Origin: a virus
Lineage: Duplodnaviria; Heunggongvirae; Uroviricota; Caudoviricetes
Virus record (IMG/VR): IMGVR_UViG_2671180758_000023
Length of the DNA: 16,821 nt
Reading direction: 5' to 3' (one strand)
The translations under genes and the position numbers were made by a program. Positions within the stretch are counted from its first letter, which is position 1; every line of letters starts with the position of its first letter. The notes beneath the pieces are model-generated. The model made no database searches. It saw nothing but the letters and a program-made list of their open reading frames with translations, and had not been told where the DNA came from. This document shows, in pieces, positions 2,806 through 12,673 of the stretch.

Positions 2806-2835
2806 GCCATCGGGTAAATCAGATGATTAAATCAC

Positions 2836-2900
2836 CAGAATGTAAATTTACATTCTGCCAGCCACCAGCTACCCTCCTCAAAATTGAGGAGCCTTTTTAT
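2836..2900. terminator. Bidirectional terminator region between convergent genes: 22-bp palindrome cagaatgtaaatttacattctg and hairpin ctcctcaaaattgaggag followed by CTTTTTAT
   Basis: Two perfect dyads read directly. The second (2874-2891) is followed by a T-run on the plus strand. The first (2836-2857) is followed by a U-rich tract in the minus-strand direction. Confidence 0.55.
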
Positions 2901-2907
2901 CAACTGG

Positions 2908-3189
2908 TTACCGCCGTAACCGCTCCGGCTTCTTCCAGTGGTACGTGATTTTCTCCTTCTCCCGATACATCTCCACGCGGCGACGGTATGCCAGCAACTC
3001 AAGGACTCTGGTTCGTATATTGCGCATATCCGCATCGTTAAGTTCAATACCATCACGGCGCATCACCTCAGCAACAACACGCGCATAATTTTCGGCGGTC
3101 ACGCTGTCCGGCTGCGTGGCCTGTTCGTCATGCTGCTGGCTGATTCCAGAGACGCGGCGGATTAATCGCAGTATTTCGGCTTCTGTCAT
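2908..3189 (-). CDS. Hypothetical protein (93 aa) immediately downstream of the large terminase
   Basis: ATG at 3189 with GAGGT about 9 nt upstream. 13 nt after the TerL stop. Charged, helical-looking sequence. No family recognised. Confidence 0.5.
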   Translation of the reverse strand: MTEAEILRLIRRVSGISQQHDEQATQPDSVTAENYARVVAEVMRRDGIELNDADMRNIRTRVLELLAYRRRVEMYREKEKITYHWKKPERLRR

Positions 3190-3202
3190 GCTGCTGACCT
3201 CA

Positions 3203-4864
3203 TTACACCCCGCTAAATTCTTCCAGTTTCTGGCGGTGGCTGTCGCTTATATCAAAAGCAAAATCCTCATGCTCTGCCTGGAATGTACCAAACGCCATCA
3301 GCGCCGCTACGCTCGGGTCTATCTTGTTCGGTGATTTTTTCTTGTTCGGCTTGATATTGGCGTTCGCGTCACTCTGCATCACGACGTTACTCATCGACCA
3401 GGACAACACCGGATCGCCACGATGCACAATCACCCTGCGGTTAACAAAAACTTCGAACGATTTCGCCGCCGGACTGAATCTGAGGTAGGTTTGCGGGAAC
3501 GGCTCCACCTCAAAACCAGCCCCCTGTAATTGCGTCCTGAGATGCGTGGCGTTCCACGTATCAAAGCCCACCAGCCTGATATTAAATTTCTCCGCGTCCT
3601 GCATGATGTCATCTCTGATCCGGTCGTAATCAATGCAGTCACCTGGCGTTGTGCGTATCCAGCCCGCTTTAGCCCACTGGCGATAGACAGCGCGGTTTTT
3701 ATTGGCGGGGTTCTGTAGCTGGAACTCCGGCAGATAATGACGGGAAACCAGCATAATGGTTTTACCTACCGGAAAGGCATAGCACACGCTGGAAATATCG
3801 CTTGTGGATGATAAATCCAGCCCCGCGTAACACTCCTGGCCGTGTAAATCTTCCTCCGTGAACGTTCCGGCACACTCAGCCCATGCGCCGTTACCCATCC
3901 ACGGGGTAGTCCCCTGACACCAGATATTAAATCGCTTTGTCATCATCTCCACCCACTGCGACGGAATACCCCGCGCTTTCTGGATGGTTGAGGCCAGTTT
4001 TTCACGATCCACGGAAACATCGATGTTAGGGTTAGCCTTTATCCACATCGCCGGATCATCAACCTCGTTTTCGTCGTCCAGTTCGTAAATCAGTACAAAA
4101 ATTGAATCGTTGACCTCTTCGCCGTCCAGGATCTGGCAGCAATAATCATAGTGCTGCTTACAGGCTGAAACGACGTTACTGCCCGATGTAGTAATGGCAA
4201 ATAACAGCCCTTCGGGACGTGCGCCCATCCCCAGCTCAAGCGCGGAATAAACGCCGTTATCGGGGTGTAGGTGGTATTCGTCCACGATGGAAAGGCTTGG
4301 GTTTGTGCCCTCGATGGTTGCCGCTTTTGCTGCCAGCGGCTTTAACAGGCTGTTGCTTTTCGGGTGCATCACCTTGTGGGCCTGAATATTCACCCGCCTG
4401 CGTAACGGTCGGGATAAAAGGCACATCTGACGCGCATCATCAAAAACGATCCGCGCCTGGTCACGGCTCACCGCTGCGGTGTAAATATCCTGCTGCCCGT
4501 TCTCCATAATCAGAAACCAGTTAGCCAGAATCGCGGCGGTCGTGGATTTCGCATTTTTGCGTGGCACTTCGATAAAGGCGCTCGTGTATTTGCGCCGTCC
4601 GGTGGCCTTAACCTTAAAGCCGAGGATGCACGCAAAGGCGAACTGCTGCCACGGCTCCAGCTCAATGGGTCTGCCACGCATCGGCCCTTTTACGTGCGGA
4701 CACACCCTGGAAAAGGCAATAAACCGCTCCACAACCTCACGATCGAACGTGTAAAGGGGGCTTTCAAGGTCCGAAAAGTACCGTTTAACGGCCTGTTTCA
4801 GCCGTTTACAGGCCGGAATTTTGCCCGTTTTTACGTCTTCTGCGTACTTATTCCAGGCGGTCAA
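3203..4864 (-). CDS. Terminase large subunit (553 aa), probable TTG start overlapping the terS 3' end
   Basis: Typical TerL N-terminus (MTAWNKYAEDVKTGKIP...) and ATPase/nuclease-like length. First codon in frame is TTG (plus-strand CAA at 4862-4864) preceded by AGGA. Overlaps terS by 17 nt. Confidence 0.9.
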   Translation of the reverse strand: MTAWNKYAEDVKTGKIPACKRLKQAVKRYFSDLESPLYTFDREVVERFIAFSRVCPHVKGPMRGRPIELEPWQQFAFACILGFKVKATGRRKYTSAFIEVPRKNAKSTTAAILANWFLIMENGQQDIYTAAVSRDQARIVFDDARQMCLLSRPLRRRVNIQAHKVMHPKSNSLLKPLAAKAATIEGTNPSLSIVDEYHLHPDNGVYSALELGMGARPEGLLFAITTSGSNVVSACKQHYDYCCQILDGEEVNDSIFVLIYELDDENEVDDPAMWIKANPNIDVSVDREKLASTIQKARGIPSQWVEMMTKRFNIWCQGTTPWMGNGAWAECAGTFTEEDLHGQECYAGLDLSSTSDISSVCYAFPVGKTIMLVSRHYLPEFQLQNPANKNRAVYRQWAKAGWIRTTPGDCIDYDRIRDDIMQDAEKFNIRLVGFDTWNATHLRTQLQGAGFEVEPFPQTYLRFSPAAKSFEVFVNRRVIVHRGDPVLSWSMSNVVMQSDANANIKPNKKKSPNKIDPSVAALMAFGTFQAEHEDFAFDISDSHRQKLEEFSGV

Positions 4865-5204: not shown

Positions 5205-5494
5205 GCTTATTTTTTCGCCAGATTATTTTTCAAAAAATTCCCGTGCATAAAAATTTGAGGAGGCGTTCGGTGCCCGGCGGGGTCGGGTTTGTCCTGAAAA
5301 CGCCCCCCCACCCCGTCATACAGCCTCATCAGCGATTGCGGAAACATTCCATAACCTCGCGGTCACGGTCGGTTAATCGCTTCGCTGTGATGCGTTCTGC
5401 GCGTCCTGACGCTTTATCTTTATGCCCTGTTTCCTGTGTCTTCCATGCGTCACGCTGCCTTATAAGTCCACGGATAAGGCGGTTTTGTTCCCGC
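5205..5494. other. HNH-terS intergenic region; candidate cos/packaging site (G-rich tract tgcccggcggggtcggg at about 5271-5287)
   Basis: 290-bp non-coding gap in an otherwise tightly coupled operon, between an HNH endonuclease and a P27-family TerS, which is the arrangement of cos-type HK97-like phages. The G-rich tract is only loosely similar to lambda cosN (GGGCGGCGACCT). Confidence 0.3.
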
Positions 5495-8348: not shown

Positions 8349-8377
8349 AAAACACTAAAGGGGCTTTTAAGCCCCTT
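8345..8377 (-). terminator. Intrinsic terminator/attenuator hairpin between the major capsid and protease genes
   Basis: Dyad aaggggctt/aagcccctt (8358-8377) followed in the minus-strand direction by a GTTTTAT U-tract. Placement immediately after a capsid gene is common for stoichiometry control. Confidence 0.45.
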
Positions 8378-8387
8378 CTGTATGCTG

Positions 8388-9545
8388 TTAATCGTCGTCC
8401 TGTGGCAGTTCCAGAATCTTGATCGCGTTCGAATCCACCACGCCACCGCCTAAATATTTCTGCGTGAAAATTTTGATGAAGCCCGGCTCTGTGAGGTTGT
8501 CCGGTCTGGTGCGAACACCTGTTTCGTGATCAACAATGTAGTAACCGCGTTTGAAGTCACCCAGGGCAATAACGTTATCAGGCATAAACTCCAGATATTC
8601 GACCGGAAGGCCCAGCAACGTATCAGGATCACCCGCCTGTAAACGGTCGCGCCAGATGTAATCACCGTTCGCGTTCTTCACCTTCTGAAGTTTTGCCGCC
8701 GTCGTGGAGTTAACCACCCAGACCGCGTTTTTGCGGTATTTTTTACGTAATGCAAATTTCAGGTCGATCAGCGGGTCCGCAGATGTCCACGCCAGAGATT
8801 CGGAAGGTTTAATTACCTGCAACGTACCAAAATCACGCTCTTTGTCGTTCTTCTCTGCACGGGGTACGGATAAAAAACCTTTTGCTTTTTTGTCACCGTC
8901 GCCCACAACCAGATCGCTTTCTTCGGTTTCCGTGAAGGTGTCGCCAATCTCACCCGTCAGCCATGAAAGGATGTCCACATCGGAAAAATCCACGATTTCC
9001 TGTGTGGTGCGCGGGTACGCATAGACCGGATACAGCTTAATGCTCACCTCGTTAATCTGCGGGGTGCTGGTCTGTTCGCGTGTCTTACCCTCTTCACCGT
9101 GGTTAACGGTCGCACCGCCAGCGGAAACAAGCTGCTTAAACTCGTTGCTGCTGATTTTCTTCACGGTACAGATGCGGCGCATGGTGGATTCATCCGTCAG
9201 CATTCGCATGATTTCGGTGTTCAGTTCGGGGATAACGGTATAACCACCATCAGCGGGAACGCCTGTACTTAATGCGCGGGTTTCACCTGTCAGAATGTAG
9301 TTGCGTAGTTCTGCGGGGTCAGTGGTCTGGCTGCTTTTACCTGGCTTGCTGCGCTCTTCGTCTGCAATGGCTTCAAGGCGGGAAATGTCTTTATCGAGGG
9401 ATTCAGCTTTAGCGCGTAATTCGTCAAATTTTGCGCCCTCAGCATCGTTAAGACTGCGGTTTTCTTTTTCCGCGTTCTCCAGCATGTCGCGCATCTGATT
9501 TTTAATGGCGGTTTTCTGCTGGCGTAATTCGATTATTCTCGGCAT
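8388..9545 (-). CDS. Major capsid protein, HK97 fold (385 aa from ATG 9545; ORF track extends to a GTG at 9593)
   Basis: N-terminal coiled-coil delta/scaffold-like domain (IELRQQKTAIKNQMRDMLENAEKENRSL...) followed by a typical HK97 MCP body. AGGA 8 nt before ATG 9545. Confidence 0.9.
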   Translation of the reverse strand: MPRIIELRQQKTAIKNQMRDMLENAEKENRSLNDAEGAKFDELRAKAESLDKDISRLEAIADEERSKPGKSSQTTDPAELRNYILTGETRALSTGVPADGGYTVIPELNTEIMRMLTDESTMRRICTVKKISSNEFKQLVSAGGATVNHGEEGKTREQTSTPQINEVSIKLYPVYAYPRTTQEIVDFSDVDILSWLTGEIGDTFTETEESDLVVGDGDKKAKGFLSVPRAEKNDKERDFGTLQVIKPSESLAWTSADPLIDLKFALRKKYRKNAVWVVNSTTAAKLQKVKNANGDYIWRDRLQAGDPDTLLGLPVEYLEFMPDNVIALGDFKRGYYIVDHETGVRTRPDNLTEPGFIKIFTQKYLGGGVVDSNAIKILELPQDDD

Positions 9546-9634
9546 AAAAAAAGTCCTGGGGTTAAGTAAGGAACTCCAGGACGCGGCAAACACTCAACCG
9601 TTTTTCATAAGGAAATCAGTAATCGCACCGATCG

Positions 9635-9684
9635 TTTTCCCGCCTGGTAATGAATATTGGCGAGCACATTAACAGGCGGGAAAA
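9635..9684. promoter_or_regulatory. Large imperfect inverted repeat (18-14-18: ttttcccgcctggtaatg ... cattaacaggcgggaaaa) in the capsid-operon leader
   Basis: Read directly; the arms match at 17 of 18 positions. Lies 90-140 nt upstream of the capsid ATG on the transcribed strand. No adjacent U-tract, so more likely an operator or leader structure than a terminator. Confidence 0.4.
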
Positions 9685-9689
9685 TGGCC

Positions 9690-9800
9690 CCAGCGTCCTG
9701 GCACCACGGGCGAGAATAATCATGATTCAGGTCGGGTAAAATATGCCGTTCCGGTCAGCGAGCAACGTGGAACAACCACGAACAAATAATTTACAAAACA
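9690..9800 (-). promoter_or_regulatory. Candidate late (capsid-operon) promoter region containing the 13-bp motif CAACGTGGAACAA (9763-9775) and TTGCTC-N16-TATTTT on the minus strand
   Basis: Only sizeable non-coding gap upstream of the head operon. The motif is repeated at 1588-1600 with conserved flanking ACCGRAACGG. Promoter hexamers are a by-eye match. Confidence 0.35.
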
Positions 9801-9826
9801 TGACAAAAAGCCGGATTGCTCCGGCT
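9801..9826 (-). terminator. Rho-independent terminator after the PerC-like gene (hairpin agccgga-ttgc-tccggct followed by a U-run on the minus strand)
   Basis: 7-bp GC-rich stem with 4-nt loop at 9809-9826. Five A on the plus strand (9805-9809) equal a U-run 3' of the hairpin on the minus strand. 7 nt after the stop at 9833. Confidence 0.6.
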
Positions 9827-9832
9827 GTGTGA

Positions 9833-10105
9833 TTATCTGTCCTGGTAATTTCGCCATATTTCATCGCTTACACCATCTATACCCATTTCAGCATAAGTGC
9901 GATCTACTGCCTTTCTCAGGTCTCCGAAGTTATCCGGCGGCTCCGGTGGCTTCTGTGCCTTCCTGGAACATTCCAGCCGTCGCATCGTAACCTGATGCCG
10001 TTCCTTGTCTGTCTCCACCAGCAGCATGACTTCACCCCATCGCGCCGCCGCCCTCCGGTAAAAGCCTTTCGCCTCGAGTTCTTCCGCTATGCGGTCATGT
10101 ACCAT
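9833..10105 (-). CDS. PerC-family transcriptional activator-like protein (90 aa from ATG 10105; ORF track extends to a GTG at 10225)
   Basis: MVHDRIAEELEAKGFYRRAAARWGEV and C-terminal MGIDGV motif. GAGGGGG RBS 5 nt before ATG 10105. Last gene of the early/replication operon before the terminator. Confidence 0.6.
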   Translation of the reverse strand: MVHDRIAEELEAKGFYRRAAARWGEVMLLVETDKERHQVTMRRLECSRKAQKPPEPPDNFGDLRKAVDRTYAEMGIDGVSDEIWRNYQDR

Positions 10106-10115
10106 CGCCACCCCC

Positions 10116-10526
10116 TCAGAACGGAATACCGTCACCGTAAGGGTCATCGCCTCCCGCTGGTGGCTGATTACCCTGTGTGCCTGTGGTTTTGCGTCTGTTC
10201 CCGCCAGGACGTGCCGCACGGGCACTGATTACGCTGTCTGCAATAACCTGATAACCCTGCCGCGTTTCCCCGTTCTGTCCGGTCCACTGGCTGACCTGCA
10301 TCGTGCCGGATACGCTGGCAACGTCGCCTTTTTGATGTTTAGCCAGGAAGTCGGCCTGCTTACCAAATGCGATGACCGATAGCCATAACGTAGCCTGCCC
10401 ATCCTGCGCCTGACTACATGGCAACGATACCGCCATACGTGCCAGCGTCATTGGTGTGCCCTTGCTGGTCTGTTTTACCTGCGGGTCGTCCACCAGCCGC
10501 CCGTAAGCTGCTATCTGTGCTGTCAT
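10116..10526 (-). CDS. ssb: Single-stranded DNA-binding protein (136 aa)
   Basis: OB-fold-like N-terminal region, Gly/Gln-rich linker and C-terminal acidic tail ending DDPYGDGIPF (SSB DDDIPF-type tip). Strong RBS GGAGAGGTGG. ATGA overlap with the upstream ORF. Confidence 0.8.
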   Translation of the reverse strand: MTAQIAAYGRLVDDPQVKQTSKGTPMTLARMAVSLPCSQAQDGQATLWLSVIAFGKQADFLAKHQKGDVASVSGTMQVSQWTGQNGETRQGYQVIADSVISARAARPGGNRRKTTGTQGNQPPAGGDDPYGDGIPF

Positions 10527-10985: not shown

Positions 10986-12377
10986 TCCTACATCATCACC
11001 GTCAATGTAGATCACGTCGTCTTTTTCCAGTTTGGCTAACCATCGTTTAAGGTGTTTTGTGTCATACCCCAGCTTTTTCATATCGTCACGTAACAGCGGG
11101 ATCGTGCACTTGTCGCCGTGCTGTGTGCGTGAACGTATGCATCCCCATAGCGCGGTATGGTTTTCCGTCTTGTTCCCTGCCTCCTCGATGCGCTCCAGTT
11201 CAACAGGAGGGCGCGGATCATCCACCACCACCAGCGACGTGATTAATTCACCGTCAGCGTCGGTAAAAAGCTCCACCACGCGTAAGTCATATGCGGCTTC
11301 TTTGAGTTCCTCCGCGTCCTTCATTTTGGTGCATGAGATAACCAGCGCTTCGCTTCCTGCGTCCTCCCTGCGTATCCGGTATTCAGCATCCAGCGAAGCA
11401 CGAAATGCACTGGAACCGCGCGCGCCTTTCGTCTCATCCTTGCCGGAATGGTGAACCACCAGCACCGTGGCCCCTGTGCGTCGTTTCAGTTCGTCACAAC
11501 CACGGATAAACGCCCCCATATCACGGGAATCATTTTCATCATTCCCACCAAAGCAACGCGCCAGCGTATCCAGAATAATCATGCGTACAGGTTTACCCGT
11601 TTCCCGCTCCACCTGACGGGCAGCGATAACCATTTCATCAACATCAAGCGGGGCAGCCGGAAAGATGGGGCGGTTTACCAGATACAGATTTTTCACCTGC
11701 TCATCGTGCACAACCTCCCAGGCTTTTACACGACGCGGAACACCTATACCGCCTTCACCAACCACATAGAGAACCGCACCATGTGCAACCCTGCGGCCTC
11801 CCCACTGGCGACCAGTGGCAACATGGCACGCCCACGATCCGGCAAGGAATGATTTATAGGACCCGCTAGCCCCGTATATGCTGCATAGCGATACCGCCGG
11901 AATAATCCCCTTAACCACGTAATCCAGTTGCGTGTCGTATCCGGTAGATCCAACGCTCATCGGTAGCGTGGTTTTTCGCTGGTGGTTTTTTTCTTCCGCC
12001 GGCTCTTTCCCGCGCACCCGTTCCAGGTATTCGCGCCAGTTCTCCCGCATATGGCTGTGCATCCCTTCGGGGTAATAATTCGCATCAGTTACACCCGCCG
12101 CCGCCAGCTTGTGCGCAATGGCATTAATATTTGATGGCCTGATGTGGCCTGCCTTGTACAGCCGGACACAATAGCGCCCCTCGTCGATGATTCTCAGGTC
12201 TGCCAGTTCATCCAGTTGATCATCAGCCAGCACAACGGGAGGCACATTATCGCCAGCCAGTCGCCCGTCCTGTTCCTGCCACTGTTTCGCATGTGCCCAG
12301 GCATCACTACCCGCAAAAATAATGACTTCGGTCATCTTGTCGTAAGGCTGTTTTTTTAAGTTCGGTGCGCTTTTCAT
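10977..12377 (-). CDS. Replication protein, RecA-fold ATPase (RepA/AAA_25-like helicase, pri-rep analogue), 466 aa
   Basis: Walker A-like YGASGSYKS, Walker B-like VRMIILDTLARCF, and VLVVHHSGKD motif typical of RepA-like helicase ATPases. Unassigned N-terminal domain and a C-terminal winged-helix-like tail. A canonical primase domain is not evident by eye. Confidence 0.8.
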   Translation of the reverse strand: MKSAPNLKKQPYDKMTEVIIFAGSDAWAHAKQWQEQDGRLAGDNVPPVVLADDQLDELADLRIIDEGRYCVRLYKAGHIRPSNINAIAHKLAAAGVTDANYYPEGMHSHMRENWREYLERVRGKEPAEEKNHQRKTTLPMSVGSTGYDTQLDYVVKGIIPAVSLCSIYGASGSYKSFLAGSWACHVATGRQWGGRRVAHGAVLYVVGEGGIGVPRRVKAWEVVHDEQVKNLYLVNRPIFPAAPLDVDEMVIAARQVERETGKPVRMIILDTLARCFGGNDENDSRDMGAFIRGCDELKRRTGATVLVVHHSGKDETKGARGSSAFRASLDAEYRIRREDAGSEALVISCTKMKDAEELKEAAYDLRVVELFTDADGELITSLVVVDDPRPPVELERIEEAGNKTENHTALWGCIRSRTQHGDKCTIPLLRDDMKKLGYDTKHLKRWLAKLEKDDVIYIDGDDVGPL

Positions 12378-12673
12378 TTCTTGCCCCTGAATCCGTTAAT
12401 CATGGTTTTCAGCTTCTGGATGTTTGCCCGTGCCCTGGCGTTGCTGGTGGGCACGTTATGCGGCGCGGTCTGTACCAGAGAAAAATCACGCCGGAACTGA
12501 TAAACAGGCATCACGCAATCATATTCGTAACCTTCACGGCGGTAAGTTACGCACCGTCCCGCCACGCCCTTAATCATTACCGTGCCGCCGTACTGGTCGC
12601 GGTAAATATCACCGCGCGTAAATTTAGGGTGAGTGTTGCCACTGGCAGTTAAGCCAGAATATTTAAGTTTCAT
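12374..12673 (-). CDS. Hypothetical protein (99 aa)
   Basis: ATG with GGAGA RBS. ATGA overlap with the replication gene start. No family recognised. Confidence 0.5.
   Translation of the reverse strand: MKLKYSGLTASGNTHPKFTRGDIYRDQYGGTVMIKGVAGRCVTYRREGYEYDCVMPVYQFRRDFSLVQTAPHNVPTSNARARANIQKLKTMINGFRGKK

Follow-up and report, generated by a model that had tools for sequence, protein, structure and literature searches.

An inverted repeat upstream of the capsid gene of a phage satellite is very probably a conserved stem of a structured leader RNA

Results

The window analyzed here is the whole stretch of DNA in IMG/VR virus record IMGVR_UViG_2671180758_000023 (16,821 nt). It is a capsid-forming phage-inducible chromosomal island (cf-PICI), a phage satellite, inserted in tqsA, and all its genes lie on the minus strand. 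A preliminary description of the window had drawn attention to a long inverted repeat (dyad) in front of the major capsid gene. The comparative and folding analyses indicate that this dyad is very probably a functional RNA stem in the leader of the capsid gene. The stem, designated P2, stands between a small 5′-terminal hairpin (P1) and a hairpin that carries the Shine–Dalgarno sequence (P3), and what is conserved in it is the structure and not the sequence. We tentatively propose that the dyad is the P2 element of an approximately 160-nt 5′ untranslated leader of the capsid/packaging operon, and that this leader works by a switch-and-staple mechanism. The coordinates of the features are collected in Table 1.

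The dyad in the window

The repeat search returned arms at 9635–9652 (TTTTCCCGCCTGGTAATG as DNA) and 9667–9684 (CATTAACAGGCGGGAAAA), which are 94% complementary and 14 nt apart; the previously described 18-14-18 repeat with a match at 17 of 18 positions was thereby confirmed. When 18-nt inverted repeats with at least 17 matches and a spacer of 3–30 nt were scanned for, the dyad was the sole repeat of its quality in the 16.8-kb window, and none was found in 300 Markov-1 simulated windows with the same dinucleotide make-up. The 61-nt dyad segment folds with −24.2 kcal/mol as mRNA (minus strand; z = −3.9 versus dinucleotide shuffles) and with −27.8 kcal/mol as plus-strand RNA (z = −4.8). The outermost pair, T9684–A9635, is private to the window allele, as C occupies 9684 in 26 of the 28 unique relatives of the Escherichia coli lineage, and the conserved stem therefore consists of 16 pairs in 17 positions. 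Across these 28 unique sequences, variation is limited to two of the 18 positions in each arm and, in the loop, to four of the 14 positions and a 4-nt insertion.

The dyad had been placed between the predicted late promoter and the capsid start, and this was borne out: it lies about 20–70 nt past a conserved promoter and 90–140 nt before the capsid ATG at 9545. The reported absence of a U-tract after the dyad also held, on both strands. The dyad was considered as an intrinsic terminator and rejected. The sequence after it reads AACGAUCGG on the minus strand and UGGCCCC on the plus strand, and the terminator scan did not return it.

A fixed leader architecture across satellites

Related leaders were collected in three samples: 58 IMG/VR loci retrieved with the capsid protein, 80 genomes of other species retrieved with the capsid alignment, and at least 120 further IMG/VR contigs, mostly of 14–18 kb, which carry the exact P1 motif in one copy per contig. 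Independent folding gave the succession P1, P2, linker, P3, and AUG in 41 of 41 unique leaders and in another 83 unique leaders, drawn from at least 120 IMG/VR contigs. The genera that bear this architecture are E. coli, Shigella, Proteus, Providencia, some Xenorhabdus, Serratia, Erwinia, Pantoea, Kosakonia, Citrobacter, Enterobacter, Kluyvera, Rahnella, and Rosenbergiella. The order of the elements is fixed: a block TTTGTAAAT(T/A)ATTTGT, a −35-like TTTAC, a −10 element TAT.TT, P1, P2, the linker, P3 with the Shine–Dalgarno sequence, and AUG.

P1 was recognized as a hairpin with a G(A/G)CG loop located 6–8 nt past TAT.TT; in the window, TATTCT is followed after 6–7 nt by P1. The counterpart in other genera is GUGGCACUCA-GACG-UGAGCCGCCAC, and the P1 sequence is near-invariant across genera. 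The differences between the P1 arms of the window and those of this majority type are compensatory.

P2 is present at the same position in every related leader, as a long hairpin that begins 0–3 nt after P1 (with no gap in the window). Its arms are unrelated between elements, as illustrated by the pairs GGCCGUUUAAUC/GGUUAAACGGCC, UGUCCACCCGG/CCGGGUGGACA, GGCCGUCAG/CUGACGGCC, GCCCGCUUG/CAAGCGGGC, and GCCGCCUGAC/GUCGGGCGGC. The stems measure 9–18 bp and the loops 10–49 nt; many elements have a loop that consists of two hairpins, and P2 can be anything from an unbranched hairpin to a three-way junction. A mini-open reading frame (ORF) of four codons, AUGAAAAACGGUUGA (AUG AAA AAC GGU UGA; 9594–9608, minus strand), is contained in the P2–P3 linker of the E. 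coli lineage only and lacks an obvious Shine–Dalgarno sequence.

Leaders without P1 and P2 were also encountered, in L070–L118 (Xenorhabdus and Photorhabdus) and in L121 and L127–L130 (Gilliamella and Frischella). One class of them has mutually complementary segments of its own (CAUGUAGG, CCUGCAUG, and CCUACAUGCAG), and another has a 9-nt inverted repeat that links the −10 region to the start codon (CATGGTGTT ... AACACCATG).

Covariation and strand

Covariation was assessed in a plain MAFFT alignment of 39 unique P1–P2 segments. Standard pairs occupied 94.9% of the cells, versus 32–52% when the 3′ partners were slid by 1–3 columns. Both sides had changed in 15 of the 19 pairs, and none of 500 shuffles matched the observed pairing or covariation. 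Taken by helix, P1 was paired in 98.9% of its cells with changes on both sides in six of nine pairs, and P2 had such changes in nine of ten. The hairpins nested in the P2 loops covary as well (CUGC..GCAG in 29, CUGU..GCAG with a U·G wobble in 16, and CUGA..UCAG in 6). A covariance model built from other lineages only found its best match in the window at 9634–9709 on the minus strand (18.2 bits, E about 0.004, filters off); the next-best match had an E value of 0.71. The preliminary description had named conservation of the dyad in related elements as a check, and the answer is divided: the hairpin and its pairing are kept by compensatory changes, and the sequence is not. A leader RNA structure, one of the two functions suggested for the dyad, is supported by these substitutions in the stem and by the conserved promoter upstream of it.

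Three features point to the mRNA strand: a C-to-U change at 9680 in five unique relatives, which gives a G·U pair; a CC-to-UU variant of P3, in which an A·C mismatch is repaired to A–U and a G·U pair is created; and the position of the element. The strand signal comes from the nested P2-loop hairpins and from P3, not from wobbles in the P2 stem.

Complementarity between P1 and P3

P3 buries the ribosome-binding region in all related leaders. The hairpin of the window likewise holds the Shine–Dalgarno sequence and has a 5′ arm complementary to P1. The P1 segment CCAGGACGC (9701–9693) and the segment GCGUCCUGG (9584–9576) are exact complements over 9 nt, and they are the only exact copies in the window. 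The corresponding pairing is AGACGUGAG with UUCACGUCU in the majority type and GACGGGAG with a CCCGUC-containing segment in a third type. Among 56 unique P1/P3 combinations, the loop-adjacent position is U–A in 48, C–G in five, and G–C in three, and is thus a Watson–Crick pair in all 56. A P1/P3 helix of 8–9 bp is possible in 89 of 89 unique leaders. Its median cost is +6.2 kcal/mol over the minimum-energy fold, and its formation raises the number of unpaired bases in the 16 nt before AUG from 5 to 9. The alternative helix is the minimum-energy fold in locus L052 and also in a window transcript truncated before the 3′ arm of P3. In the E. coli lineage, a run of seven U residues (U7) separates P3 from the capsid AUG, and P3 with U7 has, as read from the sequence, the shape of an intrinsic terminator.

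Promoter and conserved upstream block

In 118 unique sequences, upstream conservation is highest at ATGTATAT.TT (TAT.TT with the preceding ATGTA), which ends 6–7 nt before P1, and the −10 element is conserved across genera. The putative promoter of the window occupies this position. In locus L003 (E. coli JNEC-KY176), a natural recombinant, the DNA upstream of about 9706 is unrelated, and it contains a consensus TTGCGA-16-TATAAT in the exact register of TATTCT. From these comparisons, we infer that the dyad is transcribed, with a predicted start at about 9705–9707. The replacement in L003 (2660–3020) comprises about 300 nt of unrelated DNA in place of the region from perC to P1; it introduces one more terminator-like hairpin and lacks the conserved upstream block.

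That block is conserved between genera and in leader classes that otherwise differ, with extended conservation over 9763–9799, and it occurs only once in the window. As a candidate site for an activator it surpasses the dyad, as far as its sequence conservation indicates, and the search for such a site shifts from the dyad to 9782–9797. Other candidate signals were inspected by eye. A sigma-54 promoter in P1 (TGGCAC) was rejected because the GC element is out of register, and likenesses to a CsrA site, to boxB/nut, and to the RfaH ops element were not conserved across lineages.

Genomic context

The window element has an integrase, AlpA, and primase/replication genes together with a HK97-type capsid, protease, portal, head–tail connectors, HNH, TerS, and TerL. 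A cf-PICI is defined by this set, the PICI core with its own HK97-type capsid/packaging genes, by the lack of tail genes, and by a size of about 15 kb, and the window element fits the definition. The gene order on the minus strand is int, alpA, primase, ssb, perC, capsid, protease, portal, connectors, HNH, terS, and terL. Pfam matches were obtained for AlpA, PerC, Phage_capsid, Peptidase_S78, HNH, and Terminase_4, and the gene calls are backed by the RefSeq annotation of a 100%-identical locus of E. coli CFSAN061761. The intergenic region is 96.2% identical to its counterpart in EDL933, the host of the prototype cf-PICI EcCIEDL933 (10.1101/2022.09.08.507074), also called CP-933C or O-island 51.

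The dyad is located in a 287-nt gap between the PerC-family gene (9833–10105, minus strand) and the major capsid gene. Along the mRNA strand, the gap contains the perC terminator (9826–9809), the conserved block (9797–9782), TTTACC-16-TATTCT (9740–9713), the small hairpin P1, the dyad, the linker, the hairpin at 9582–9553, U7, and the capsid ATG at 9545. A gene family encoding 74–82 amino acids, with no Pfam match (seen in L002 at 1938–2162, in L040, and in the upstream regions of many loci), is often found directly upstream of the capsid leader in other genera. Some E. coli elements have it between perC and the leader, and the window lacks it. The hairpin directly 3′ of the capsid stop codon is GC-rich, is followed by a short U-run, and recurs in almost all related elements; its role may be that of a leaky terminator or of a 3′ stabilizer, setting the ratio of the capsid to the downstream proteins. 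A DUF4222 protein of 99 amino acids (12374–12673, minus strand) has an RGD motif at residues 20–22 and appears to be a homologue of RgdR (ECs1581). RgdR is the regulator on OI-51/CP-933C that acts on motility and on LEE expression (PMC3378721).

Table 1 Features of the capsid leader and its surroundings (P1 to P3 are the hairpins of the predicted mRNA)
Feature	Position	Strand	Basis or remark
Intrinsic terminator of the PerC gene, AGCCGGAGCAAUCCGGCU then UUUUU	9809–9826	minus	Repeat and terminator scans
Conserved upstream block TTTGTAAATTATTTGT	9782–9797	minus	About 80 nt before the predicted start; cross-genus conservation
Putative sigma-70 promoter of the capsid operon: −35 TTTACC (9740–9735), 16-nt spacer, −10 TATTCT (9718–9713)	9713–9740	minus	Comparative
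P1, 5′-terminal hairpin, GGUGCCAG-GACG-CUGGGGCC	9685–9707	minus	Covariation; distance from −10
P1 segment CCAGGACGC (5′ arm, loop, and one further base)	9693–9701	minus	Complementary to 9576–9584
P2 (the dyad), mRNA stem-loop UUUUCCCGCCUG-U-UAAUG / 14-nt loop / CAUUA-C-CAGGCGGGAAAA	9635–9684	minus	Repeat search, folding, comparison
Segment GCGUCCUGG, overlapping the P3 5′ arm; possible partner in a long-range helix around P2	9576–9584	minus	Complementarity
P3, hairpin GUCCUGGAGUU / AACCCCAGGAC, 3′ arm with Shine–Dalgarno AGGA	9553–9582	minus	−14.1 kcal/mol, z = −3.4
U7 tract between P3 and the capsid AUG	9546–9552	minus	E. coli lineage only
Major capsid gene, HK97-type	8388–9545	minus	ATG at 9545; heads the packaging operon behind the leader
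Terminator-like hairpin directly 3′ of the capsid stop codon	8357–8378	minus	Kept in related elements as AGGGGC-UUCG-GCCCCUUUU

Discussion

Proposed mechanism

cf-PICIs make the capsid themselves and borrow nothing but tails from helper phages; the timing and dosage of the late operon are absent from the two reports on these satellites (10.1101/2022.09.08.507074 and 10.1101/2025.02.11.637232). The leader probably gates capsid expression. From the complementarity of P1 and P3 and its covariation, we infer an attenuator-like switch and a trigger that tips it. The switch would have four segments. In the ground state, P1, P2, and P3 would all be formed and the ribosome-binding site buried, and the default would be closed; in the E. 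coli lineage, P3 with U7 could also terminate transcription just before AUG. In the alternative state, the P1 segment would pair with the 5′ arm of P3, and the resulting helix would enclose P2, dissolve P3, and free the ribosome-binding site. Since P2 lies between segments 2 and 3 of this attenuator topology, it is read as a staple: a very stable, sequence-independent hairpin that would compact the 50–60 nt between the competing segments, prevent misfolding, and insulate. This reading accounts for the pairing-only conservation of P2, its abutment on P1, and the growth of its loop into extra hairpins. The balance could be tipped by a protein or a small RNA, or else by the kinetics of transcription during helper-phage induction.

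Several observations weigh against this proposal. Many cf-PICIs of Xenorhabdus, Photorhabdus, and Gilliamella carry different capsid leaders that have neither P1 nor P2, and the P1–P2 element is therefore not indispensable for such satellites. The U-tract after P3 is confined to the E. coli lineage, so that termination could not be the general mode of control, which would be translational. The covariation of P1 with P3 is drawn from three sequence lineages only. In the window, the alternative state lies 8.5 kcal/mol above the ground state, and no trigger was identified. The start site derives solely from promoter conservation. A simple consensus promoter scan of 9300–10300 returned no sigma-70 site, and the promoter call thus depends on the comparative evidence. 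The covariance-model score of the window is modest, and L003 and L052 were missed with default filters at E values up to 1. In the P2 stem, the wobbles (eight G·U versus four A·C in 383 positions) are too few for a strand call.

A bolder reading, which we regard as doubtful, is that the leader represents an undescribed family of cis-regulatory RNA that gates the whole capsid/packaging operon and is opened by a factor present only on induction. Such a factor might be a protein of the helper or the satellite, or a small RNA that captures P1. If this were true, the satellite would time capsid production to the late phase of the helper at the RNA level.

Alternative explanations

The preliminary description had also suggested an antitermination or a processing signal, and both suggestions figure among the alternatives. 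The best-surviving alternative, which we consider unlikely, is that P1 and P2 are a generic stabilizing or processing structure and that no switch exists. They could block the 5′-end-dependent decay by RppH and RNase E, or the 17-bp P2 could be an RNase III site. 5′-Terminal stem-loops stabilize E. coli mRNAs, as in the ompA 5′ untranslated region, and P1 begins 0–2 nt from the predicted 5′ end. The constraint on P2, which is for stability and not for sequence, agrees with such a role, and the conserved hairpin after the capsid stop codon would shield the 3′ end of a processed capsid mRNA. However, stabilization does not explain why the sequence of P1 is near-invariant across genera, why its complementarity to the 5′ arm of P3 covaries, or why a highly expressed capsid gene should have its ribosome-binding site buried. 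The P2 stems of 9–13 bp in many elements are also short for RNase III.

The arrangement of two adjacent stem-loops directly past the promoter recalls putL of phage HK022 (PMC9378689) and raises the idea of a processive antiterminator. The nascent P1–P2 RNA would bind its own RNA polymerase and make it resistant to the terminator-like hairpins on either side of the capsid gene, and the 7-kb operon would be read through. P1 is a conserved sequence with an asymmetric bulge, and terminator-like hairpins lie downstream (P3 with U7, 9546–9582, and 8357–8378). Nevertheless, this mechanism appears quite improbable. No sequence similarity to putL was seen by eye, and a P1–P2 model had no match in the PL–nun region of HK022. 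Both put stems have conserved non-canonical features that contact RNA polymerase (PMC9378689), whereas the form of P2 differs between elements, from an unbranched hairpin up to a three-way junction, and the complementarity of P1 with P3 would be left unexplained.

The preliminary description had put forward a dimeric regulator site, for example of the PerC-like protein or AlpA, and this claim was not supported. As a DNA operator, the palindrome would be bound by a dimeric regulator (PerC-like, AlpA, or a helper-phage protein) that represses or activates capsid transcription. A near-perfect dyad just past the promoter does occupy the classic position of a repressor site, joint changes of the arms are also expected of a co-evolving palindromic operator, and the hairpin is equally stable on both strands. 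The spacing of the arms speaks against such binding: the same arms are separated by about 11 nt in L052, 14 nt in the window, and 18 nt in L040, which is incompatible with a rigid dimer and of no consequence to a hairpin. A palindromic operator should keep a fixed half-site spacing and half-sites that are conserved with the regulator, and neither was found for the dyad. Other elements have unrelated arms, loops of 10–49 nt, nested covarying hairpins, and sense-strand wobbles, and the block that is conserved in sequence lies elsewhere, at 9782–9797. As to PerC, homologues within 1.5 kb upstream were found only in E. coli and Shigella in a tblastn survey, whereas the hairpin occurs in many genera, and near-identical leaders follow a PerC gene in L005 and a ProQ/FinO gene in L004. 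PerC-like genes of PICIs have been treated as accessory or virulence genes (PMC11773190 and PMC3378721). Taken together, an operator is a very remote prospect. The L004 locus (2824–3354; E. coli ATCC 43886, a second cf-PICI lineage) has its ProQ/FinO-domain gene in the position of perC, with a leader of the same type downstream; the domain belongs to an RNA-chaperone family (Pfam E = 4.6e-24).

That a long palindrome in a mobile element might here be a cos (packaging) site, an origin of replication, or else a chance or repetitive element is scarcely credible, since the dyad is single-copy in the window and not expected by chance, and since the linear record LR881103 of the particle-derived cf-PICI vB_KppS-Ant (L144) starts 22 nt before terS and ends after HNH and a small ORF, which places cos there and not before the capsid gene. 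The same record suggests that the cos site of the window may lie between the small ORF and terS, at about 5205–5330.

Comparison with known systems

No Rfam 15 family matched any part of the window at the gathering threshold, and a search of the window leader and of one majority-type leader at E values up to 10 gave only chance-level matches elsewhere in the intergenic region. In a blastn search of the region against a phage database, the matches were only inside the capsid gene, and no phage there had the leader. Literature searches returned no description of the leader, the promoter, or the regulation of the cf-PICI packaging operon.

The leader resembles the trp and pyrBI attenuators in its mutually exclusive helices, in which 1:2 corresponds to P1, 2:3 to the alternative helix, and 3:4 to P3. 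With attenuators and with the riboswitch and RNA-thermometer platforms that sequester the Shine–Dalgarno sequence, it shares a 3:4 helix that buries the ribosome-binding site and, in the E. coli lineage, a U-tract. It differs from trp-type attenuators in that no leader peptide covers segment 1, which is located at the 5′ end of the transcript. A leader-peptide attenuator was rejected on this ground: the sole ORF of the leader (9594–9608) is in the linker and absent in other lineages. The large sequence-free hairpin P2, inserted between leader segments 2 and 3, is a further difference from attenuators. In contrast to riboswitches, the leader has no recognizable ligand-binding core and matches no Rfam family.

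The putL and putR sites of HK022 likewise place two neighboring stem-loops where a phage-type operon begins, and terminators lie downstream of them (PMC9378689). However, there is no similarity to them at the level of sequence or model, and the second stem of the leader is not conserved in sequence. The leader also has a third hairpin, complementary to the first, in which the ribosome-binding site is sequestered.

In the immunity system of satellite phage P4, the CI RNA pairs with leader RNA through the seqA, seqB, and seqC segments, and it belongs to the C4 antisense RNA family of Rfam. There too, a satellite controls its own operon by RNA–RNA pairing in a leader, which causes premature termination. 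The P4 system relies on a small RNA that is processed and acts in trans, and on Rho-dependent termination, in an early (immunity) operon, whereas the cf-PICI segments are in cis in a late capsid leader, without a match to the Rfam C4 family. The late leader of lambda, pR′–tR′, is controlled by Q antitermination. Like it, the cf-PICI late operon has a leader close to its promoter, and this leader closes with a terminator shape ahead of the structural genes. Unlike it, the region showed no similarity to phage DNA in the search, neither a Q-binding nor a pause element was identified, and satellites with different helpers share the conserved leader.

A structured 5′ leader with mutually exclusive helices is a well-known kind of device; the P1–P2–P3 family with its staple hairpin appears to be undescribed, and as a structured RNA motif it is well supported and new to Rfam. 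The covarying leader, which precedes the capsid gene of at least 120 satellite contigs across many genera of Enterobacterales, offers a concrete and easily mutated candidate control point.

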